Source: Pseudomonas sp.
GTDB taxonomy: Bacteria > Pseudomonadota > Gammaproteobacteria > Pseudomonadales > Pseudomonadaceae
Assembly (NCBI RefSeq): GCF_046581935.1
Contig: NZ_JAYGFK010000022.1
Coordinates: 2,540-66,539 of the forward strand
DNA length: 64,000 nt
Direction of reading: 5' to 3'
Shown: positions 1,334 to 12,633 of the stretch, piece after piece
Position numbering within the stretch: position 1 is the first letter of the stretch
Layout of the letters: every line of letters starts with the position of its first letter
Made by a program: the position numbers and the translations under genes
The notes under the pieces: model-generated
Told to the model about the DNA's origin: nothing
The model's input: the letters and a program-made list of their open reading frames with translations, nothing else
Database searches by the model: none

Positions 1334-4168
1334 TTAGACTGGCTCGGTTGCTGCAGTTGTGGTTTCAGCCTTGCTCTTGGTGCTGTCGCGGCGCTGAATA
1401 TATTTCCAATCCGCTTCGTCGATATAGATGCCATTTGGTCCGCTGCCGCCTTCCAGGTCGATGGCCACGTGGGCGGAGACCTGCGGCTTAACGGACGCCA
1501 GGATCGGCACGAAGCCCAACTGCAGGCTGGTTTCGATCAACGCCTGCTGGTTCTTCTCGTCGATATCCGCTGCCTCGTCCAGGTAGTAGGGCAAACGCAC
1601 CTTGCCGGCCTGGTCGCGGTCCATCAGGTGCAGCAACAGGTACATGTTGGTCAGCGCCTTGATGGTCATGGTGGTGCCGTTGGAGGCCGCGCCATCGATG
1701 TCGGTGTGAATAACCGGTTGGCCGTGCACCTTGGTGATCTCGAAGGCCAGTTCGAACAGGTCCTTCAAACCGAGTTGGTTATGGTTGGCGGCCACCAGGC
1801 GGGCCAGGTATTCCTTGGCTTCTTCGTTCTTGCTGTCCTGATCGCTGCTTTGCTGCAGGTCGAATACTGAGAGCGTTTCGCCTTCTTCGTACTGACCGGC
1901 GCTGTGGATGATCTGGTCGATATGCTTGAGCGCGTCCTTGTTCGGCGCGAGGACGATGCGGAAGCTCTCCAGGTTGGAAACCTGGCGCTTGTTGATCTCG
2001 CGGTTGAACAGCGCCAACTGGTGTTCCAGGTTGTCGTAGTCGCTGCGGATGTTGCGCAGGGTACGGGCGATGTCGGTAACCGCGGCGCGGCGCGCTTTAG
2101 CCAAGGTGATGGCTTCGTCCTGGCGGTGGGCGTAGGCGTTGACCAGCAGATGCAGGCGGCGCTCGACATCGTCTTCGCTGTCGAACTTGGCCACGCCTTT
2201 CAGGCGCACTTGCGCGTACAGCGCCTCGATCTGCCCGTCAACACGCTGCAGGCCTTGCCAGGCGTCTTGGTAGTCATTGAGCAGCGGCAGCAAGTTGTCC
2301 AGGCTGTCGTCCACTGGGTCGGTAAAGGGGGTGCCGAAGGGCAGGTCGGCCGGCAGCAGTTGGCGGCGGCGTAGGGCGTCTTCCAGGGTGCGTTCCTTGG
2401 CTTCCAGGTCGGCGAGTTGGCGGCCGACCAGTTGCAGCTTGGCGGAGAGCTGCTGCACGCGCTCGGTAAAGGCATCCGAGGCGCGCTTGAGTTCGTCCTG
2501 GGCGGCTTCCAACTGGGCCAGCTGCTCAAGCTTCTGCGGCTCTTCAACGGCCAGGGTCTGGCTTTTGCGGAAGTCTTCCAGGGCTTTCTGCGCATCCAGC
2601 ACAGCTTGGTAAAACTGCTCGGCCTGGGCCTTGCTGGCGGCGCGGTCGGCGGCGACAGCCTGCTGGGTTTTCAGCTGTTTGTATTCGCGGTCGAGGCGAT
2701 CTTTCTGGTCGCGTAGGGCGGCGCGGTCGGCCAGTGCTTGCAAGGCCGGTGGCTCGATATGCGACAGATCGATGGACAGACCCGGCACTTCGAAGTGCTC
2801 GCCTTTAAAACCATCGAGAATGGCTTCTAGGGATTTCACCCAGGCGTCGCCTTCGGCAACCTGAATACCGTTCTCGCCTAATGGCAGGCTGAACAACTGG
2901 CCATTGAACAGGCGCATCAAGCGATCAACGTCCTGTTGGCTGAATTCTTCACGCAGGCGTGAATAGCTGTTGTTGTCGGCGTGTTCGAGCTGCTGCTTGA
3001 CCGATTTCAGGCGTTTTTCCAGATCACGCAGGCGCTCGTCCAGATCTTCGGCGGAGAACTGCCGCGACTGCGCCAGGGCGCCGGCGAGTTCGTCGTGGGC
3101 ATCTTTGGCTACCAACAGCTGCTCTTCCAGCACTTTGGCGTCGTTGACCAGGGCGAAGCGGTTCTTCAGTACCGACAGCTCGCCAAGCCAGCGTTGGATT
3201 TCGCTGATTTCGCGCTCCATGCGCATCAGCTCTTGGGTGCCGCCACGTTGTTCCTGCTGCAGGCCGTCTTGTTCGCCACGGTAGTGTTCGGCCTGGATTA
3301 CAAGTTCTTCGCGGCGGGCTCCGGCGTAGTCCTGCCAGGTGCCGAGCAGCGAGTCGAGCAGTGGTGAGATGCGGTGCAGTTTGCCGCGCAGCAGTTCGCG
3401 TTGATTGACGCCGGCAGCCAGGGCTTCGATCAGCGGGCCGGCAGTGACCAGCGCTTGGTAGTCCTGCTCCATGCGGCGTACATCGCGGAAGGCTTCTTCG
3501 GTGGCGGCGATGTAGTCGACGCTGCCCGAGCGCAAGCTGTGCTCGAACGCATCAAGGAACAGCTGCTTGAGCTTGGCGGCGGTGATCTCGCGCATATGCA
3601 GCAGGTTGATAAACAGTGCGCGGAAGGTCTTCAGGCTCTGTTCGCTGGTGGAGCGCAGAGGGATCAGGGTCAGATCCAGCGGAATCGAGGTATGCCCGCC
3701 GACCAGAAGGCGGCGTAGTTCTTCGGGTTTCAGCTCATAGGCCTTGATGCCTTCGCGCTCAAGGTTATTGAATAGCTCGCGCTGGCGTAGGCAGGTGCCG
3801 TTTTTCTGGTAGTGCTCTAGATCCAGCGTGCCCTGATAGGCGAAGAACTGGTGACCGAAACCGCCACCTGGGCCGCGTCCGGCTACACCGATTACGTGCG
3901 GACCGTGGGGCAGGGCGACTTCGACAAGGATGTAGCTGGTGTCGCTGGCGAAGTAGAACTTGCGCGACTGCTCCAGGCTGTATTTGCCGAAGCTCATGTC
4001 CGACATGCGCGCCAGAATCGGAAATTGCAGGGCGTTGATCGAGGCGGATTTACCCAGGTTGTTGGCACCGTAAACCGATAACGGGTGTTCCAGCGGGAAC
4101 AGACCAAGGCTGTAGCCGGCGGTATTCAGTAGGGCGAAGCGGCGGATGCCGTAGCGTTCCTGGCTCAT
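1334..4168 (-). CDS. mksB: SMC-like condensin ATPase subunit of MksBEF (MksB in the literature; some pipelines name the large subunit MksF)
   Basis: 944 aa. Walker A GANNLGKS, long coiled coil, signature-like AASNGT, Walker B YYLDEAADID. ATGA overlap with mksE. Confidence 0.9.
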   Translation of the reverse strand: MSQERYGIRRFALLNTAGYSLGLFPLEHPLSVYGANNLGKSASINALQFPILARMSDMSFGKYSLEQSRKFYFASDTSYILVEVALPHGPHVIGVAGRGPGGGFGHQFFAYQGTLDLEHYQKNGTCLRQRELFNNLEREGIKAYELKPEELRRLLVGGHTSIPLDLTLIPLRSTSEQSLKTFRALFINLLHMREITAAKLKQLFLDAFEHSLRSGSVDYIAATEEAFRDVRRMEQDYQALVTAGPLIEALAAGVNQRELLRGKLHRISPLLDSLLGTWQDYAGARREELVIQAEHYRGEQDGLQQEQRGGTQELMRMEREISEIQRWLGELSVLKNRFALVNDAKVLEEQLLVAKDAHDELAGALAQSRQFSAEDLDERLRDLEKRLKSVKQQLEHADNNSYSRLREEFSQQDVDRLMRLFNGQLFSLPLGENGIQVAEGDAWVKSLEAILDGFKGEHFEVPGLSIDLSHIEPPALQALADRAALRDQKDRLDREYKQLKTQQAVAADRAASKAQAEQFYQAVLDAQKALEDFRKSQTLAVEEPQKLEQLAQLEAAQDELKRASDAFTERVQQLSAKLQLVGRQLADLEAKERTLEDALRRRQLLPADLPFGTPFTDPVDDSLDNLLPLLNDYQDAWQGLQRVDGQIEALYAQVRLKGVAKFDSEDDVERRLHLLVNAYAHRQDEAITLAKARRAAVTDIARTLRNIRSDYDNLEHQLALFNREINKRQVSNLESFRIVLAPNKDALKHIDQIIHSAGQYEEGETLSVFDLQQSSDQDSKNEEAKEYLARLVAANHNQLGLKDLFELAFEITKVHGQPVIHTDIDGAASNGTTMTIKALTNMYLLLHLMDRDQAGKVRLPYYLDEAADIDEKNQQALIETSLQLGFVPILASVKPQVSAHVAIDLEGGSGPNGIYIDEADWKYIQRRDSTKSKAETTTAATEPV

Positions 4169-4728
4169 GCGCGGGTCTCCTGGGCGTCACGTTCTTCGGC
4201 CATGGCGCGGTCTTGCTGCACACTCAGGCACACATCAAGGAAGCGGTGCATGGGCGCGAGGAAGCGGTAGATGCCGTTGTCTTCGCTGGCAAAACCGAGC
4301 TGGGTCAGGCGGCGCATGATTTTTTCTTCCAGCTCCTCAACGCTGGTGACTTCAGCCTGGAGGAACAGGTCGCGGTACTTGTCGAGCAAGGCTGGCAGTT
4401 CATCACGGCCGAGGCTACCGCCGTCGAGTACGGCCAGCGGGTCGCGGCCTTGGTCGGCCAGGTGTTCCACCAGAATGAAGGTGAACAGCGCCAGACGCTG
4501 GGCGGTCTTGTTGACCTGTGCCCCCATTTGCTCGGGAACGAAATAGTAGAAACCCCGGCTGTCGCAGGTCAGCTCATAGCCGAGGGCTTTGAACAGGCTG
4601 CGGTACTGATCCTGCTGGCTGGCCAGTTGGGTATACAGCTCCGGGTTGCTACGGCTGATGTGGTAGCCCTTGAACAGCTCGCGGAAAATCGGCGCGAGCT
4701 GGGTGAGTTCTTTCAGGTCGATATTCAT
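4165..4728 (-). CDS. mksE: MksE condensin subunit (short C-terminus)
   Basis: 187 aa, MNIDLKELTQLAPIFRELFKGYHISR. Middle gene of the coupled three-gene operon. Confidence 0.85.
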   Translation of the reverse strand: MNIDLKELTQLAPIFRELFKGYHISRSNPELYTQLASQQDQYRSLFKALGYELTCDSRGFYYFVPEQMGAQVNKTAQRLALFTFILVEHLADQGRDPLAVLDGGSLGRDELPALLDKYRDLFLQAEVTSVEELEEKIMRRLTQLGFASEDNGIYRFLAPMHRFLDVCLSVQQDRAMAEERDAQETRA

Positions 4729-5975
4729 ACGGTGGTAGTCCCGGCCGGCTTGATCAGGGCAAAGGAGCTCAGGCTGACCTGATGCTCGCGGGTGAGGTAG
4801 TCGCGGCGCTCAAGGCGCTCGCGCTGGAAGCGGCCGTCGCGCGATAAGCGCGAGAACCAGTAGAGCAATTCGTCGGTCGCGCCTTCGGGCTCCTGCTCCA
4901 GCAGCCAGACCATCAGGTCCGGCAACGGTAGGGCCTGTTCGCAGCGCTCGATCATCTCGCGTGCGGTACGCGGTGCGCGCGGGGCTTCGCCCTTGCGGCT
5001 GCTGTGCGCTTTAGGGAACTGCGCCGGTTTGGGTTCGAAACGGGCCAGGGCATACACATAGGCCTCGACCTGCGAGGCGGTGCCGAGAAACGTGCTTTGC
5101 GGACGACTGAACAGCGGCAGCGAGGCCTGCGGCACGGCGTCCAGCCCCTTTTTGCGGATCGCCGCCAGAGCCAGGGCTGCGCCACGGGTCACGGCGTTAT
5201 GCCGGCGGGCTTCTTCACGCAGCGGCAACAGCAGCTCGCGGGCGCGGCGCAGGGTCAGCTGGGCGGTGGTCTGCATTTCCAGGATGCGCGCATGGGTGCG
5301 CAGCAGCAGGTCGTCGTCCACCAGTTGGCCGAGGCGCTGCTGTTCGCCGAGCAGGCGCAACAGCACGTGCTCGACGCGGTACACGCCTTGTTCAAAGGCG
5401 CCGTCAGCGGCGACCAGTTGGATCATCGGTTCGACGTATTCATCCCAAGTCGCCAGCACTTCGGCATAACGCTGACGCAGGGGAATCTGCCGGTCGCTGG
5501 TCTTGGCGCGTTCGGCCACGGCGACCAGCGCCTGCTCGTCATTGGCCAGCTTCTTCAAGACATCGCGCACGCGCATATCGAGCAAACGCAGCTGCCGCGC
5601 GAGATCGGCGGCGTCGCGTACCTCGAAAGCGTCCTTGATATAGCCGGCCAGGCGCTCCAGGTGGCGCAAGTAAGCTTCGATCTCCAGGCACAGGCCCAGG
5701 CGATGTTCGCGGCGCAGGTAAGCGAGGAAGTCGTGGATCTGCGCGTTTAGCTCGAAGCGGTTGGGGCTTTTGGCCACCGGCACCAGGATATCCAGGCGGA
5801 TCCATTGGTCGAGCAGGGCGGTGACATCGGTTGGCGTGCCATCGGGCAACTGCGCGGTGAGCTGATTACGCAGCTCTACCAGGCTCAGGGTGCCGGCATC
5901 GAAGCGTTCGCACAGCGGCTCAAGCAACGTCCAGTGTTCAGCAAGGGCGCGCAGTACGCGCTTGGGGTCAATCAT
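4725..5975 (-). CDS. mksF: MksF kleisin-type condensin subunit
   Basis: Likely start MIDPKRVLRALAEHW at 5975 (416 aa). First gene of the operon, overlapping mksE. Confidence 0.85.
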   Translation of the reverse strand: MIDPKRVLRALAEHWTLLEPLCERFDAGTLSLVELRNQLTAQLPDGTPTDVTALLDQWIRLDILVPVAKSPNRFELNAQIHDFLAYLRREHRLGLCLEIEAYLRHLERLAGYIKDAFEVRDAADLARQLRLLDMRVRDVLKKLANDEQALVAVAERAKTSDRQIPLRQRYAEVLATWDEYVEPMIQLVAADGAFEQGVYRVEHVLLRLLGEQQRLGQLVDDDLLLRTHARILEMQTTAQLTLRRARELLLPLREEARRHNAVTRGAALALAAIRKKGLDAVPQASLPLFSRPQSTFLGTASQVEAYVYALARFEPKPAQFPKAHSSRKGEAPRAPRTAREMIERCEQALPLPDLMVWLLEQEPEGATDELLYWFSRLSRDGRFQRERLERRDYLTREHQVSLSSFALIKPAGTTTV

Positions 5976-6264
5976 CGGGGCATCCGCTCTGCGAGCTGTT
6001 CGCAAAAAAACGCCGATTGTACTGCATGGCGCGGCCAAGACCTGAGTGTCAGTCATCGTCTATAGGGCTTGCTTGGGCCGGTGTAACCGCCGATGGGGCG
6101 TTGGGTAACAGTATGGCGGCAGCCCGCGCCTAACCGAGTGAAGGGTTTCGGATTTTTCTCGACTATGGGTTGGCACGTTTAGGCGGTTGTTTTTTTATAG
6201 TGCTAATCAAGGCGTGGAGTCCGCAGTACTCCGCCATTCAAATAAGAACGACAGGGAATCAGCC

Positions 6265-7320
6265 ATGCGTCCGCCTCTTGGTTTTGTCCGAACTACGCTT
6301 GCCTTGCTCTGCGCTGGATTAATCAGCACTGCTGCTCATGCCAAGATGGTCGAGTTGGCGGATACCGAGTTGTCGGAAGTCACCGGCCAGGCCTTTATCA
6401 ACCTGACGACTGATAGCAACGCCGGTATCGATTACACCCGAGTCAATTTCGGTGTGAATGTCGACACCCAGTTGAATATGAAGAAGTTGCAGCTTGGCCA
6501 ATACAACGATTCGGTGACTCGCCCAGGCGAGGCGTCGGGTTCTTCTGACATCCTGATCAATAATTTCGCATTGGGTACGGTAAACGCCGACGACACTATT
6601 AACCCGTTCAAAGTCGCCAACCCTTATCTGGAGCTGGCTTATTCGGGCAATAAGGTGGTGGGGGTGCGCATTGGTTTTGGTGAAGCCAAAGGCACCCTGT
6701 CCGGGGATATTCAGAGCCTGACGGGCAATATCCCGGTGCATATCAAGGGCACTGCCGATGCGGTGTATAACAGCGCCAATGGTTTGCAGCGGACAGCACT
6801 GTTTTTGGGCGGTATTTACCGTACCAGCGTGCTGGAGGCGGATGCTCAGTTGGTGGCATCTGACGGCACCGCAGACCCCATTCGTGCCGGTATGTCGGGG
6901 ATCAAAAATGGCGACGGCCTAGAGTGCACCAGTGGCTGCTTGCCGGGGATATCCGATGCGGCGCTGGCAATCATCAAGTCTAATGGCTGTGCCCTTCTCG
7001 GCATCCAGACGTGTTTCTCGTTGTCGCAATTCCAGTCGCTGCCCGTGGGCAATATGGCGGTCAATGATTCCGCTGCTACCTCCGCCATTGAGGGGGCTGC
7101 CAAAGGCTTCTTTATTTCCATGCAAACCCAGGATGTTGCCTGGCGTGACATGGATAGCAATGCATTGATCAATACCTTGAAAGGGGCCTTTATGAATTTG
7201 CCCAAGTACCGTGATGCCAACGGCAACATGGTGGCCCCGATCAATATCGACTTCGAACAGGCGTTTAATGGTATCCCGCGCCAGGACACCTGTCTGGGCA
7301 CAGCCACTTCGGGGTGCTGA
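6265..7320 (+). CDS. Secreted DUF6160/FilA-like protein 1 (351 aa)
   Basis: ATG at 6265 after AGGGA. Sec signal ending AAHA, then KMVELADTELSEVTGQA. Gly/Asn/Ser-rich beta-type composition with several Cys pairs. Confidence 0.75.
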   Translation: MRPPLGFVRTTLALLCAGLISTAAHAKMVELADTELSEVTGQAFINLTTDSNAGIDYTRVNFGVNVDTQLNMKKLQLGQYNDSVTRPGEASGSSDILINNFALGTVNADDTINPFKVANPYLELAYSGNKVVGVRIGFGEAKGTLSGDIQSLTGNIPVHIKGTADAVYNSANGLQRTALFLGGIYRTSVLEADAQLVASDGTADPIRAGMSGIKNGDGLECTSGCLPGISDAALAIIKSNGCALLGIQTCFSLSQFQSLPVGNMAVNDSAATSAIEGAAKGFFISMQTQDVAWRDMDSNALINTLKGAFMNLPKYRDANGNMVAPINIDFEQAFNGIPRQDTCLGTATSGC

Positions 7321-7322
7321 TC

Positions 7323-8369
7323 ATGCGAGCGCTAAATGCGGTTGTTGCGTTGATGCTGTTGTCGGGCGTGGCCCAGGCAGAGATGCAGGCGTTGGATGAC
7401 CAGGAGCTGTCTGCCGTCCAGGGTGCTGGGTTGGGTTTGGTCTTGGACGGGATCCTGCTGGATGCGAGCGGTGCGGTGATCACCATCAATGACATCAATA
7501 ACGGTTCGGGGCAGAACGTGCCGATTGCCGTGAAGGAGTTTTATCTAGGGGCTGCTGGCAGTAATAAAGGGGCGAACCTTAATCCGGTAAATATTGGTCG
7601 GCTAGAGCATCCGTTTGAAGTCAATTTGGCCAAAGGCGAGAGCCTGCGCACGCTGCGTGATGATGGGCAGTGGGTGCAGACCACGCCGAGCAATGTCAGT
7701 GTGCTGGAGTTCAAATTTCCCGAGCGGTTGACCGGTGCTGCTGGGCAGGCTTGTATCAGCGGTTATGCCGCTGCCGGGAGTAACTGCTCCAGCCGCGCCT
7801 CCGAGCGCGTCGACATGGGTATTCGCTTCGACTTCCAGGTCGCTGCCGGGCGTACCGACATCATCAACCTCGACATCAGTGAGCTGGTTATGGATGGCAG
7901 TTACCTGCGGCTATGGGGTGATGATCCCCGGGGGCAACTGGTAGGCGAGGCGCGGGTGAATATTTTTGCCAAGAGTCTGCAATTGATGTCCTGCGCGGCC
8001 GGGACGGCCAACTGCAGCAGTGAGCAAGAACAGCTCGCGCGTACTCTGACGCTCGGGAATGCCTACGCCAGTATTTCCCTCGGTTATGGCAAAAGCCAAC
8101 CGCTGCTGTTCAATGTCAGCAGCAACGGTCAGTTTGTCCTGGAGCTGCCTAACCCGGTAACCCGCGCGGCCAACGGCAGTGCACGCTCGGCGGCAGAGCG
8201 CAATACGATTGCCAGCGACTTCTATGCCAATGCCCCGCGTACCAATATCGTGATCGATAACCTCAAGTCAGGTAACGGCAGCTTTGCCAGTGGCGGTTAT
8301 AACTTTGGCTATAACGCCATTCAGGGGCTCAGCATCAACTACCTGAAGGTGACCAGCCATGATCTGTAA
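7323..8369 (+). CDS. Secreted DUF6160/FilA-like protein 2 (348 aa)
   Basis: ATG 2 nt after the previous stop. Signal ending VAQA, then EMQALDDQELSAVQGAG. Cys-bounded loops. Confidence 0.75.
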   Translation: MRALNAVVALMLLSGVAQAEMQALDDQELSAVQGAGLGLVLDGILLDASGAVITINDINNGSGQNVPIAVKEFYLGAAGSNKGANLNPVNIGRLEHPFEVNLAKGESLRTLRDDGQWVQTTPSNVSVLEFKFPERLTGAAGQACISGYAAAGSNCSSRASERVDMGIRFDFQVAAGRTDIINLDISELVMDGSYLRLWGDDPRGQLVGEARVNIFAKSLQLMSCAAGTANCSSEQEQLARTLTLGNAYASISLGYGKSQPLLFNVSSNGQFVLELPNPVTRAANGSARSAAERNTIASDFYANAPRTNIVIDNLKSGNGSFASGGYNFGYNAIQGLSINYLKVTSHDL

Positions 8370-8964
8370 AGCCGGATTGATCATCGGTGCGTTACTGGCC
8401 TTGCCGGCCTATGCCGAGATGCAGGCGCTCGACGATGCCACGTTAAGCACGCTGAACGGCCAGGGCGGGGTTTATCTGTCGGGCGAGCTCAGCATCAACA
8501 AGGATGGCGGCGTGCTGTGGAACACACCAGCCAGCAATAACCCCAGTACCTGGACGGCGGGCCAGCGCAGTTGCGCCACCGCGGGCGCCAGTACGCCAGA
8601 AAACTGTGGCATGCGTATCGCGATTCGCGCCGAGGCTGCTGGCGGTTGGTATGTGCTGGACAACCTCAAGGGTGTGTTCAGCTTTGAAGGGCTGACGCTG
8701 CGTACCCGCACCATCAACAGCGGCTTCAATGGTGACGGGACGGCCTTTAATCAGGACGTTCTGGAGTTCGGTTTACCCAATGAGGTGAAGTTCAAAGATG
8801 GCAGCTTTGCCTTTGGCGTTGCCAACCAGGGCGGCTGGCAGAACAAGTCGTTGAGTGCAGCGAATGGCGGCAACCCGTCTTACCAGCAGACCAATATATT
8901 CTCGGCAAAGATCGATGGATCGATCCGTATGCAGGGCAACTTACTGGTCTTTCCGACGAACTGA
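8359..8964 (+). CDS. Secreted DUF6160/FilA-like protein 3 (201 aa)
   Basis: Overlaps the previous gene by 11 nt. Signal ending PAYA, then EMQALDDATLSTLNGQGG. Ends NLLVFPTN. Confidence 0.75.
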   Translation: MICKAGLIIGALLALPAYAEMQALDDATLSTLNGQGGVYLSGELSINKDGGVLWNTPASNNPSTWTAGQRSCATAGASTPENCGMRIAIRAEAAGGWYVLDNLKGVFSFEGLTLRTRTINSGFNGDGTAFNQDVLEFGLPNEVKFKDGSFAFGVANQGGWQNKSLSAANGGNPSYQQTNIFSAKIDGSIRMQGNLLVFPTN

Positions 8965-8975
8965 GGAGCTGAGCC

Positions 8976-11297
8976 ATGCATCGTCATATGCTGTTGTTGC
9001 TCGCGCTGCTGAGTCCCCTGGGGCAAGCCATGCAGGTGCTGGATGATCAGGCGTTGTCGGCGGTTAGCGGGCGCGATGGCATTAGCTTGCAAACCACGGG
9101 TGGCGGCTGGTCGGCAGGTAGCATCGATTACCGTCAGGATGACCAGACCCTCAGCCTGAAAGGCGTCAGCAGCACGCCACAAACGGCCGGCAGCAGCTCG
9201 ACCACCACGCTTGATGTGGTTGGCAATCAGCTACAGATCGAGCACAGCGGCCGCGCGCAGGTGCTGAGCGTCGACAGTATTGAACTGGCTGGCAGCAGCA
9301 ATAGCTTCGGTTCGTTTCGCGCCTTCTTCACCTTGGGTGCCAGCCTTAAACTGAGTGGCGGCGGGGCCAGTGGTGTCAGTGGTTTTAGCGTGGATGACAG
9401 CCAGCTATCGCTGAGTGCAGCGACCTTTTATTACCGCGATAACGGCTTTGATCTGATCGTCAAAGGCCTGTCGTTCGATACCTACCTGAACAACGCTTAT
9501 ATCGACATCGTCAGTGGTGGTAACGGCCAGGAGGTCAAACTGGATCTGGGCTCGTCGCGCTTTGTCGGCTCGATTGACGCTATTGGTCTTGATCTGGCCC
9601 ATGGCGACCCGACACCGGGCGTGGCAGTTACCCCAGACAGCCCCGACTTGCGTGATGTTGATGCACAGCGCAGTTTTGGCAAGCTGAATATGGACCTGCG
9701 TTTGGGCGGCAGTATCAGCATTGCCGGTGGCGGTGCCAGCGGTGAGGGGTTGCGGATCAAGCCCAACATCACCATCACCAATAGCTTGTTTCAGTATCAG
9801 GACGAAGGTGTGCTGCGCGCGGAAAACTTTGCCGGCAGCCTGATCAGTAATTCGGGCCTGACCCTTGACCTGGAGCATGACTCTCTTGGCAGCTACGCCA
9901 AGGTGGCCTTTCAAGACCTCAAGTTCAACGCCACCCTGGGTGGTTTGATCATGGGTAACCCGAGCAATCAAAAACTCGGTGCTCTGGCCGTAGATTTGAA
10001 TTTCGTCGATCAGGGTTCGTGGCAAAACTGGTTGAAACTACGTCCGGGTGGCGATCCCAACTCCGGGCAGAAGGGCATCAGCGGCGAGCTTAGTTGGAAT
10101 ATGGTCGACAGCTCGCTGGCCCTGACCGATAACGGCAATAGCCTGTGGTTCAGCGGTTTGCGTACGCACGGCACTGGCCAGTTCAGTTTCGACTTGACCA
10201 AGAGTTGCGCGGCCGGCGTCAGCAACGGTTGCTATGCCGGAACCAATAGCGACATGAACAGTGGTGGCTATAACGGTCACTTTGATGGCCTTCGCCTGGG
10301 CCTGAAGAATGTTGTTGGCAGCTACAGTTTTGACGGTCTGCGCGTTGGCACGGCTGATGCGCCGCTGCAAGGTGGCACCGAGTTGTTAGTGCTGATGGAA
10401 ATCTTCCCGGCTTATGACTTCACCCTTAATGGCCAGATCACCTTGCGTCCCGGTGGCGCAGTGGGGGACGGCCTGCGTTACAACGCCGACTTCTACATCA
10501 GCGAGGCCAATGCGGCGATTACCGTGGATGAAAACGGCAGGGGGCTGTGGCTATCGGGCAGCAGCTATGACATGCACTACCGCGATGGCTCGCTGGATAT
10601 CAGCAACAACGGTATTGAACTGCGTAAAGGCACGTACTGGTCGAAGCTGGATGTTTCGGATGTGCGCTGGGGTGATCGGCTCACCGGTAGCAGTATTGGC
10701 CGGCTGGTGCTCAAGCGTTATGAGCAGGGTTCGACACTGGCGCTCAGCTCCGGTGGTGCCGGTGCGCTGTGCGTGGGCGGCAGTGGCAGCACATCCGGTG
10801 CTTGTGCGAGCAATGGTGGGCGCTGGGAGGATCGCGGTAATGAAGGGCTTTCGGTCAAGCTGAAGAATGTCTTCGTACATGATGAAAGCGGCAACCCGGC
10901 CCATACTGTTTCAACCAACGAGAAGCGTAACCAACTCATCATCGAGACCGAGCGGGTAAACGGCGTAAATGGTACGGGCAGCCAACTGGTGGTGGATAAC
11001 TTCTCCACCTCTGATGGCGATCCGAATAACCCCAATGCCAACACCTATGGCTTTAACGCCGACCTCAGTCTGGATGTGGCACCCACCAAGGTGTGCACCA
11101 AAACAGCATCTGGCTGCACTGCGATCAGTCCCGATCCGCTGGGCTTTGCGGTAAGTGGTCGGGTGCACTTCAAAGAAGTGAATATCGACCGGATTCAACA
11201 TGTACATCCTGACGGCGGTGCAGTCACCTCTATGTATGGGGTCAAGCTGCAGAACGCCGACATCCGCGCCAACCTGACGGCGACGCCGATCAACTAA
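8976..11297 (+). CDS. Large secreted DUF6160-family repeat protein 4 (773 aa)
   Basis: GAGGAG RBS. Signal ending LGQA, then MQVLDDQALSAVSGRDGI. About five internal repeats; ends ANLTATPIN. Confidence 0.8.
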   Translation: MHRHMLLLLALLSPLGQAMQVLDDQALSAVSGRDGISLQTTGGGWSAGSIDYRQDDQTLSLKGVSSTPQTAGSSSTTTLDVVGNQLQIEHSGRAQVLSVDSIELAGSSNSFGSFRAFFTLGASLKLSGGGASGVSGFSVDDSQLSLSAATFYYRDNGFDLIVKGLSFDTYLNNAYIDIVSGGNGQEVKLDLGSSRFVGSIDAIGLDLAHGDPTPGVAVTPDSPDLRDVDAQRSFGKLNMDLRLGGSISIAGGGASGEGLRIKPNITITNSLFQYQDEGVLRAENFAGSLISNSGLTLDLEHDSLGSYAKVAFQDLKFNATLGGLIMGNPSNQKLGALAVDLNFVDQGSWQNWLKLRPGGDPNSGQKGISGELSWNMVDSSLALTDNGNSLWFSGLRTHGTGQFSFDLTKSCAAGVSNGCYAGTNSDMNSGGYNGHFDGLRLGLKNVVGSYSFDGLRVGTADAPLQGGTELLVLMEIFPAYDFTLNGQITLRPGGAVGDGLRYNADFYISEANAAITVDENGRGLWLSGSSYDMHYRDGSLDISNNGIELRKGTYWSKLDVSDVRWGDRLTGSSIGRLVLKRYEQGSTLALSSGGAGALCVGGSGSTSGACASNGGRWEDRGNEGLSVKLKNVFVHDESGNPAHTVSTNEKRNQLIIETERVNGVNGTGSQLVVDNFSTSDGDPNNPNANTYGFNADLSLDVAPTKVCTKTASGCTAISPDPLGFAVSGRVHFKEVNIDRIQHVHPDGGAVTSMYGVKLQNADIRANLTATPIN

Positions 11298-11535: not shown

Positions 11536-12633
11536 ATGATAAAGACGCCGTACTACCTCATCGACAAGCAAAAGCTGCTGGGTAACCTGGAGAAGATCGC
11601 CTATGTGCGCGAACACTCCGGAGCCAAGGCACTGCTGGCGCTCAAGTGCTTTGCCACTTGGTCGGTCTTCGACCTTATGCAGCAGTACATGGATGGCACC
11701 ACCTCCAGCTCGCTGTATGAACTCAAGCTGGGTCGCCAGAAGTTTGCCGGCGAGACCCATGCCTACAGCGTGGCCTGGGCCGACGACGAGATTGAAGAGA
11801 TGGTCGCCAACTGCGACAAAATCATCTTCAACTCCATCGGCCAGCTTGAGCGCTTTGCCGCTGGCACAGAAGGCACCACTCGCGGCCTGCGGGTTAATCC
11901 GCAGGTGAGCAGCTCTGATTATCTGCTGGCCGATCCGGCGCGACCCTTTAGCCGTCTTGGCGAATGGGACCCGGAAAAGATCGCTACGGTGATGGATAAG
12001 ATCAGCGGCTTTATGTTCCACAACAACTGTGAGAACAACAGCTTTGAGTTGTTTGACCAGATGCTCAGCACCATCGAAGAGCGCTTCGGTCATCTGCTTG
12101 AGCAGGTTGAGTGGGTCAGCCTCGGTGGCGGCATTCACTTCACCGGCGACGACTATCCGCTGGATCAATTCTGCGCGCGGCTCAAGGCCTTCTCCGAACG
12201 CTTCGGCGTGCAGGTTTATCTGGAACCGGGCGAAGCGGCAATCACCATGAGTTCCTCGCTGGAAGTCACGGTGCTCGACACCCTCTATAACGGCAAAAAT
12301 TTGGCCGTAGTCGACAGCTCCATCGAAGCGCACATGCTCGATCTGCTGATCTACCGGCTCAACGCCAAGATGGAACCCTGCAGCGGCGAGTACAGCTACA
12401 TGGTGTGCGGCAAGTCGTGCCTGGCGGGTGACATCTTCGGTGAGTACCAATTCGATCGTCCGCTGGCCATCGGCGATCGTCTGTCGTTTATCGACGCAGC
12501 GGGTTACACCATGGTCAAGAAAAACTGGTTCAACGGCCTGAAAATGCCGTCCATTGTGGTGAAGCAGCTCGACGGCAGCGTCGAAGTGGTTCGCGAGTTT
12601 GAGTTTAACGACTACCTGTCCAGCCTCTCGTAG
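11536..12633 (+). CDS. nspC: Carboxynorspermidine/carboxyspermidine decarboxylase
   Basis: MIKTPYYLIDK, ALLALKCF (PLP lysine), SLGGG, YLEPGEA, SCLAGD motifs. Confidence 0.92.
   Translation: MIKTPYYLIDKQKLLGNLEKIAYVREHSGAKALLALKCFATWSVFDLMQQYMDGTTSSSLYELKLGRQKFAGETHAYSVAWADDEIEEMVANCDKIIFNSIGQLERFAAGTEGTTRGLRVNPQVSSSDYLLADPARPFSRLGEWDPEKIATVMDKISGFMFHNNCENNSFELFDQMLSTIEERFGHLLEQVEWVSLGGGIHFTGDDYPLDQFCARLKAFSERFGVQVYLEPGEAAITMSSSLEVTVLDTLYNGKNLAVVDSSIEAHMLDLLIYRLNAKMEPCSGEYSYMVCGKSCLAGDIFGEYQFDRPLAIGDRLSFIDAAGYTMVKKNWFNGLKMPSIVVKQLDGSVEVVREFEFNDYLSSLS

Follow-up and report, generated by a model that had tools for sequence, protein, structure and literature searches.

Secretion has been known since 2017 to depend on stand-alone C39 peptidases of the periplasm (FapD and FilB), for which no substrate has been defined so far (PMC5557850, PMC6173800). 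In the Fap system, FapD is exported by Sec and its catalytic Cys is needed for secretion, FapF forms a trimeric barrel, and Sec also carries the substrates over the inner membrane; the Fap proteins lack a canonical leader (PMC5557850, PMC6173800). A second described system is the Fil locus of Acinetobacter (filABCDEF; NF050077-NF050081), for which fimbriae and an Edman-identified FilA band were reported in Acinetobacter sp. Tol 5 (PMC3498257). The best-known C39 substrates, the double-glycine leaders, follow the code Leu(-12)-X3-Glu(-8)-Leu(-7) with Val-4 and end in Gly-Gly, Gly-Ala or Gly-Ser, residues -4 to -11 folding into a helix of two turns, which binds in a hydrophobic groove (PMC6363468). 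Here, a stretch of 64,000 nucleotides from Pseudomonas sp. (GCF_046581935.1, contig NZ_JAYGFK010000022.1, positions 2,540 to 66,539; in the following the window) is described, in which a cassette of four genes, A to D, codes for proteins with a double-glycine-type leader directly behind a Sec signal peptide. A to D are probably in-trans clients of a Fil machinery encoded elsewhere in the same genome, with the leader cut by FilB and exit through FilC and FilD.

The N-termini of A to D feature a hydrophobic signal peptide with an AxA-type end (AHA, AQA, AYA and GQA), directly followed by the motif M-x-x-L-x-D-x-x-L-S-x-[VL]-x-G-[QAR], of which M, L, D, L, S and G are invariant in an alignment of the four. 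This consensus had been reported for all four proteins in a first-pass annotation of the window and is seen again in the alignment, all four products also lying above the cut-off for the family DUF6160. All genes were taken from the open reading frame (ORF) call and lie on the forward strand. Gene A (6265-7320) yields a precursor of 351 amino acids; its start is approximate, a TTG at 6187 being likewise open. The precursor comprises a signal peptide (residues 1-26), the leader K27-Q42 (6343-6390; K-MVELADTELSEVTGQ) with Leu-12, Glu-8, Leu-7, Val-4, Gly-2 and Gln-1, and a mature part of 309 amino acids with 6 Cys. Gene B (7314-8369), again with a 351-amino-acid precursor, has the leader E-MQALDDQELSAVQGA (7380-7427) with Leu-12, Glu-8, Leu-7, Val-4 and a Gly-Ala end, followed by a mature part of 313 amino acids with 4 Cys. 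In the 201-amino-acid precursor of gene C (8359-8964), the leader E-MQALDDATLSTLNGQ (8416-8463) precedes a mature part of 166 amino acids with 2 Cys, and E20, D26, L29, S30, G34 and G36 are invariant across 45 orthologues. Gene D (8976-11297; precursor of 773 amino acids) codes for the biggest cargo protein, with 740 amino acids and 6 Cys in the mature part; its leader MQVLDDQALSAVSGR (9030-9074) continues with DGISL, as in FilA-type subunits. The GTG start of B overlaps the stop of A and the start of C overlaps the stop of B, which indicates one operon.

All four products reach the gathering threshold of 27 bits of Pfam DUF6160 (PF19657), with 33.3 (A), 28.4 (B), 28.8 (C) and 46.4 bits (D), and the matches of B and C cover model positions 1-50 only, i.e., signal peptide, leader and first strand. 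The NCBIfam cut-off for FilA (NF050077), 220 bits, lies far above the scores of A and C (14.9 bits each) and D (25.7 bits), B having no match, and the matches of A, C and D are confined to the N-terminal part; by these model scores, A to D are not FilA orthologues. A hidden Markov model (HMM) of the leader, comprising 22 residues without the signal peptide and built from 136 family representatives, was run on the complete set of 39,332 six-frame ORFs of the genome with 60 or more amino acids. The six DUF6160 proteins of the genome took ranks 1 to 6 with expectation values (E) of 7e-10 to 0.14, the remaining ORFs had E of at least 1.2 and the next matches lack a signal peptide; thus, the motif is beyond chance.

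No C39 or FapF-type gene occurs within the 64-kb window, which is situated on contig C18, and the only two C39 matches of the genome lie on the contigs C10 and C16, in agreement with the first-pass annotation, according to which neither partner is encoded nearby. A search for C39 plus FapF- or FilC-like genes in the rest of the genome, which had been proposed there, revealed one complete filABCD-like operon on contig C10, consisting of a DUF6160 subunit, a FilB-type C39 peptidase, a FapF-like FilC and a FadL-like FilD. The genome accordingly possesses the FilB-type C39, FilC and FilD that clients of a Fil system would call for. The Fil-type locus (contig C10:29788-40580, L009:1789-12581) comprises regulators, subunit, filB, filC, filD and a MalM-domain gene, the regulators being two tandem MalT-like STAND/LuxR proteins of 904 and 907 amino acids upstream of the operon. 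Its DUF6160 subunit of 149 amino acids is, with 98 bits, the highest-scoring in the genome. FilB matches the FilB model with E 6e-84 (FapD model, E 3e-34), FilC the FilC model with E 6e-94 (FapF model, E 2e-16), and FilD, a member of the FadL family, the FilD model with E 1e-161. The gene filB follows the subunit stop codon by about 90 bases, across a terminator-like hairpin. This GC-rich hairpin with a subsequent T run (L009:7951-7979) suggests attenuated read-through.

Gene set and order of the C10 operon are those of the Acinetobacter Fil locus (PMC3498257), and the window proteins share the N-terminal block of FilA. Nevertheless, the Acinetobacter cut-offs are not reached by FilB (282 vs 475 bits), FilC (315 vs 630 bits) or the FilA matches of this genome (15-49 vs 220 bits). 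Unlike in Acinetobacter, there is no linkage between the window cassette and the operon, the mature domains of the cassette proteins do not resemble FilA, and a MalM-domain gene replaces filE/filF at the end of the Pseudomonas operon. For FilF, which in A. baumannii is a lipoprotein secreted by the type 2 pathway (PMC12802150), the Pseudomonas operon has no counterpart. With the Fap system, the C10 locus has in common the stand-alone C39 peptidase and a homologous outer-membrane barrel. In contrast to Fap, amyloid repeat proteins are absent here, A to D match no Fap family, and the scores stay below the equivalog cut-offs for FapD (118 vs 330 bits) and FapF (60 vs 700 bits). Both Fap and Fil had been named as possible sources of the partners; only the Fil type holds for this genome, which has no FapD-type gene.

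In an alignment to the peptidase domain of PCAT1, the active-site Gln, Cys, His and Asp are conserved in FilB, the N-terminus of which is hydrophobic and conserved. Together with experiments that place FapD in the periplasm (PMC5557850), this hydrophobicity suggests that FilB, too, is periplasmic. The second C39 match, on contig C16, is marginal (22.9 bits) and belongs to an LssB-type type 1 ATP-binding cassette (ABC) exporter beside a TolC-family gene. As such an exporter works from the cytoplasm, it is irrelevant to Sec-exported proteins, and with its TolC partner it was rejected as processing enzyme. Besides the cassette and the operon subunit, a sixth DUF6160 gene occurs as a lone orphan on contig C20 (L010:6474-7031; 185 amino acids, leader LLPMDNQSLSEVSGQ), far from both. 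Its product shares the C-terminal KVWGH with the FilA-like subunit of the operon, to which its mature part is weakly similar (E 1e-6), and it may represent a second fibre subunit.

With the cut placed one residue past the Gly, hydrophobic residues fall on -4, -7, -12 and -15 and Asp on -10. The double-glycine core (Gly-2, Val or Leu at -4, Leu-7 and Leu-12) is present in all four leaders, Glu-8 in those of A and B. At -1, Ala is found in B, Gln in A and C and Arg in D, so that the leader of B, ending in Gly-Ala, is fully canonical and Gly, Ala or Ser is not the general rule at this position. The resemblance to a double-glycine (C39) leader noticed in the first-pass annotation is therefore upheld by both the hydrophobic pattern and Gly-2 of the published recognition code. 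As in class II bacteriocin, microcin and lanthipeptide leaders (PMC6363468), the leader of about 15 residues is an amphipathic helix, hydrophobic at -4, -7 and -12, with Glu-8 and Gly-2, and likewise, a single peptidase of the bacteriocin or PCAT C39 systems acts on a range of unrelated cargo proteins, whether their genes lie in cis or in trans (PMC6363468). Classical leaders stand at the extreme N-terminus without a Sec signal and are cut by an ABC exporter, whereas those of A to D follow a Sec signal peptide, and the peptidase is a separate protein that probably faces the periplasm. Further differences from bacteriocin systems are the -1 residue, mostly Gln here instead of Gly, Ala or Ser, the size of the cargo, which comprises 166-740 residues and not peptides, and the export route, probably outer-membrane barrels instead of an ABC transporter.

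The register also applies to the whole family, for which 134 representatives of 50%-identity clusters were aligned with an anchor pattern that required a hydrophobic residue at -7 and -15 but neither Gln/Arg at -1 nor Gly at +2. The resulting block reads [LM]-x-x-[MLI]-D-D-x-x-[LM]-[SG]-x-[VMTI]-T-G-Q-[AD]-G-[VI]-[TS]-I. Gln or Arg occupies -1 in 134/134 representatives (Gln alone in 131/134), and Gly at +2 as well as Asp or Glu at -10 are each found in 133/134. Leu or Met stands at -7 and -15 in nearly all of them, hydrophobicity at these positions being an anchor requirement. Gly-2 lies near residue 37 of the family precursors and in every case behind the signal peptide; a signal peptide with an AxA site precedes the leader in all six paralogues of the genome and in the 134 representatives. 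An AlphaFold2 (AF2) model of the FilA-like protein of the genome, with a predicted local distance difference test score (pLDDT) of 74.6, shows a short helix from -10 to -3 and the first strand from +2.

A solved filament of a family member bears directly on the position of the cut. The profile of the FilA-like family matched one solved structure, PDB 9XFV ('pilus-like-alpha'; E 5e-13), a native filament of unknown organism from cave water, which was solved by cryo-electron microscopy and identified from its density (PMC12956863). It was used there to validate map handedness, and family, leader and peptidase are not discussed (PMC12956863). A 207-amino-acid family precursor could be aligned to the 173-residue chain of 9XFV (E 4e-42). 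Residue 1 of the chain is the Asp right after Ser-Gly-Gln, i.e., precursor residue 38, and the chain reaches the last residue of the precursor; signal peptide (22 residues) and leader (15 residues) are consequently missing from the filament. The leader register had been written down before this match appeared. Retention of the motif in mature secreted proteins had been named beforehand as the outcome that would speak against processing, and this family member starts after Gly-Gln. The subunit of 9XFV is of the DUF6160/FilA type, and the family accordingly builds filaments. A to D themselves have no sequence match to 9XFV, and a Foldseek search of the FilA-like model against the PDB gave no significant match (best E 0.5), with 9XFV at rank 14. 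A cut one residue past the Gly, with Gly at -2 and Gln, Ala or Arg at -1, is most likely. The two-step processing by machinery supplied in trans that the first-pass annotation had put forward is supported by the C10 operon, 9XFV and the distribution of both components among genomes; the cut directly after Gly probably has to be moved by one residue.

This distribution was followed in 201 genomes of the genus and 401 of the class. FilB-type peptidases (at least 267 bits) occur in 14 of the 201 genus genomes, and DUF6160 and FilC in exactly the same 14; in other words, FilB-type C39 and FilC are present in 14/14 DUF6160 carriers and 0/187 non-carriers. About 148 other genus genomes have FapD-type matches only (95-113 bits). 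The FapD-type peptidase is thereby found in about 148 of the 201 genus genomes, and the genome studied here has no such gene besides FilB. Four of the 14 Fil-positive genomes (G023, G043, G059 and G077) feature a second, FapD-type match; thus, Fil and Fap can coexist in one genome. Protein D has homologues in 12 of the 14 Fil-positive genomes and in none of the rest, and all 12 have the operon, so that cassette genomes lacking a C39/FapF-type locus, which had been named as a refuting outcome, were not encountered (12/12 with fil operon).

Since co-occurrence within the genus could stem from relatedness alone, the class-wide sample was added. DUF6160 was detected in 8 of its 401 genomes, from six families, and these eight carriers are the eight highest FilB scorers (at least 175 bits; next genome 139 bits). 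The co-occurrence check suggested earlier thereby returned a strict association both in the genus and in the class (FilB in 8/8 carriers vs 0/393 others). Among the class carriers, DUF6160 is adjacent to FilB in three genomes and unlinked in four. Two genomes of one family (G303 and G486, 2.3 Mb) even have 8 and 6 DUF6160 genes on 7 and 5 contigs together with a single FilB. Such scattered genes with a single FilB indicate that in-trans clients are normal for the Fil system. In another family of the same order, one genome shows the complete arrangement known from Acinetobacter, with filA (four copies), filB, filC, filD, one gene and filF.

Beyond the tag, the cargo proteins have little in common. 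Pairwise BLASTP of mature A to D yielded nothing better than E 0.039, and none of them matched the FilA-like protein of the same genome. In hhalign, the profiles of the FilA-like protein and protein C share 38 columns only, covering signal end, leader and first strand. Searches with D, the C20 orphan and the profile of C gave no direct sequence match to solved structures. A conserved N-terminal tag on otherwise unrelated mature proteins has, as far as sequences can tell, the look of a sorting or processing signal, and conservation of the tag alone is unlike a structural domain or a duplication remnant. The term orphan subunit cassette, which had been chosen for the four genes, is fitting in its orphan, in-trans aspect; the designation as subunits is not established, mature A to D being unlike FilA and each other.

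The cassette lies between genes outside the system. To the left lies a three-gene Mks condensin operon (1334-6056, reverse strand, NCBIfam equivalogs), to the right nspC for carboxynorspermidine decarboxylase (11536-12633, forward strand), which matches TIGR01047 with E 2e-120 and 401.7 bits, slightly below the curated cut-off of 409.05. Both flanks had been recognised before, and the neighbour then called mksF corresponds to MksB in NCBIfam, a difference in nomenclature. In the NCBIfam naming, the 443-amino-acid gene beside the cassette is MksB and the 944-amino-acid SMC-like gene MksF, the reverse of the Muk-based names. A promoter and terminator scan of the cassette gave no signal above shuffled controls. 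In another species of the genus (G142, L026:2922-8979), a smaller and different DUF6160 cassette occupies the same mks-nspC site, made up of one larger ORF and a gene for a 173-amino-acid protein with the leader LQPLQEDEMQQVSGQ. This position between mks and nspC seems to accept varying sets of leader-tagged genes.

From these observations, the following course of events can be proposed. A Sec signal peptide would take each of A to D to the periplasm, where signal peptidase would cut at the AxA site and thereby expose the amphipathic double-glycine-type leader of 15-16 residues. The exposed leader would be recognised by the stand-alone, periplasm-facing FilB, which would cut after the residue following Gly, i.e., after Gly-Gln in A and C, Gly-Ala in B and Gly-Arg in D. 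Cleavage may be coupled to passage of the outer membrane by way of FilC (FapF-like) and FilD (FadL-like), and at the surface, A to D would represent minor or tip components of a FilA-type fibre or separate cargo. That A to D are substrates of the periplasmic C39 peptidase class is likely; we infer FilB as the cutting enzyme and FilC/FilD as the exit.

Several points weigh against this reading as clients of the Fil machinery. The cleavage of A to D is itself deduced from their sequences, and Gln or Arg at -1, as in A, C and D, lies to our knowledge outside the specificity of the characterised C39 peptidases. A and B moreover deviate from the family consensus past the cut, having no Gly at +2, and their leader-HMM scores are weak on the genome-wide scale (E 0.14 and 0.02). 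FilB lacks a basic n-region. FapF-type channels are thought to pass unfolded chains, and the 2-6 Cys of mature A to D fit poorly with unfolded export through such a narrow pore. The 9XFV model was built from density and would be compatible with an uncut, disordered leader. Finally, the co-occurrence in the genus may reflect one clade, and the class sample is small, with 8 carriers.

Some of these points would be met by a motif that acts as a docking or recognition tag and is bound but left uncut in A to D, only canonical FilA-type subunits being cleaved. The tag would then guide these proteins either to FilB, in the role of a chaperone, or to FilC/FilD, or it would stay on as an N-terminal element of the folded protein. 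The -1 residues of A, C and D and the missing +2 Gly of A and B would agree with such a role, and type 1 systems are known to include C39-like domains that have binding but no cutting activity (cited in PMC5557850). Packing of the helix could not be judged for protein C, the AF2 model of which (pLDDT 49.5) is too poor for use. Nevertheless, FilB retains the full catalytic tetrad, and Gln is the usual residue at -1 in the family (131/134), also in the precursor type of 9XFV, the filament of which is without leader. In addition, B ends in the classical Gly-Ala, and the leader is retained in orthologues of 70-88% overall identity. A tag of this kind is accordingly regarded as unlikely, though it is the strongest of the competing explanations.

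Still less probable is a reading of A to D as common periplasmic or outer-membrane proteins unconnected with Fil, the block being a remnant of duplication or the site of another protease. No machinery gene is located within the 64 kb, and the Cys counts of mature A, B, C and D (6, 4, 2 and 6) are all even, which suggests disulfide folding in the periplasm; the FilA-like subunit has no Cys. However, after a duplication the mature parts should resemble each other too, and only the tag is conserved. Moreover, each DUF6160 carrier among the 601 genomes sampled also has a FilB-type C39, and the mks-nspC site of another fil-positive species carries a different DUF6160 cassette.

A start of the genes at the internal Met of the motif, with cytoplasmic removal of the leader by the C39 domain of the C16 ABC exporter in the manner of classical bacteriocins, is very improbable: the motif begins with Met in A to D and the genome does have a second C39-family match, but this match is the low-scoring LssB-type exporter with its TolC-family neighbour, the Met is Leu in the other two paralogues and often in orthologous cassettes of five other species, which keep the upstream hydrophobic segment and the AxA site, and the same signal peptide arrangement recurs in all six proteins and across the family. 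Orthologues with Leu at this position and a kept signal peptide show that the genes do not start there, as does the overlap of B and C with the stop codon in front of them, and a classical cytoplasmic leader beginning at the internal Met was rejected on these grounds.

The reading of A to D as Fil clients combines parts of known kinds, namely the double-glycine leader, the C39 peptidase and the Fil and Fap barrels. The literature searched describes no leader that follows a Sec signal and is combined with a free periplasmic peptidase and a Gly-Gln site, no link of such a leader to DUF6160, and no use of the tag on unrelated, unlinked cargo. That search returned a single incidental mention of DUF6160, no mechanistic paper on DUF6160, FilB or FilC, and no link among DUF6160, FilB and the 9XFV filament. 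What the window adds is an orphan four-gene cassette with strict dependence, at the level of genomes, on the fil operon and mutually unrelated cargo.

With regard to the FilB and FapD peptidases, the substrate signal is explicit in the DUF6160 proteins as a double-glycine-type leader behind a Sec signal, and it is portable, being found on four unrelated proteins whose genes lie at a distance from those of the machinery. This genome further offers a simple test system of one peptidase and six predicted clients with predicted new N-termini, and signal peptide, leader and Gly-Gln provide a sequence rule for Fil cargo elsewhere. It is possible, if for now a tentative view, that the block serves as a portable periplasmic sorting tag and that Fil loci constitute a general two-step secretion pathway with dispersed cargo. 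If this is true, any Sec-exported protein carrying the tag would be handed to FilB, FilC and FilD, cut after Gly-Gln and exported. Fil loci would then accomplish more than pilus assembly, with six cargo proteins in this genome, among them the four unrelated ones of the cassette, and the Fil pathway would show what periplasmic C39 peptidases of the FapD type recognise.

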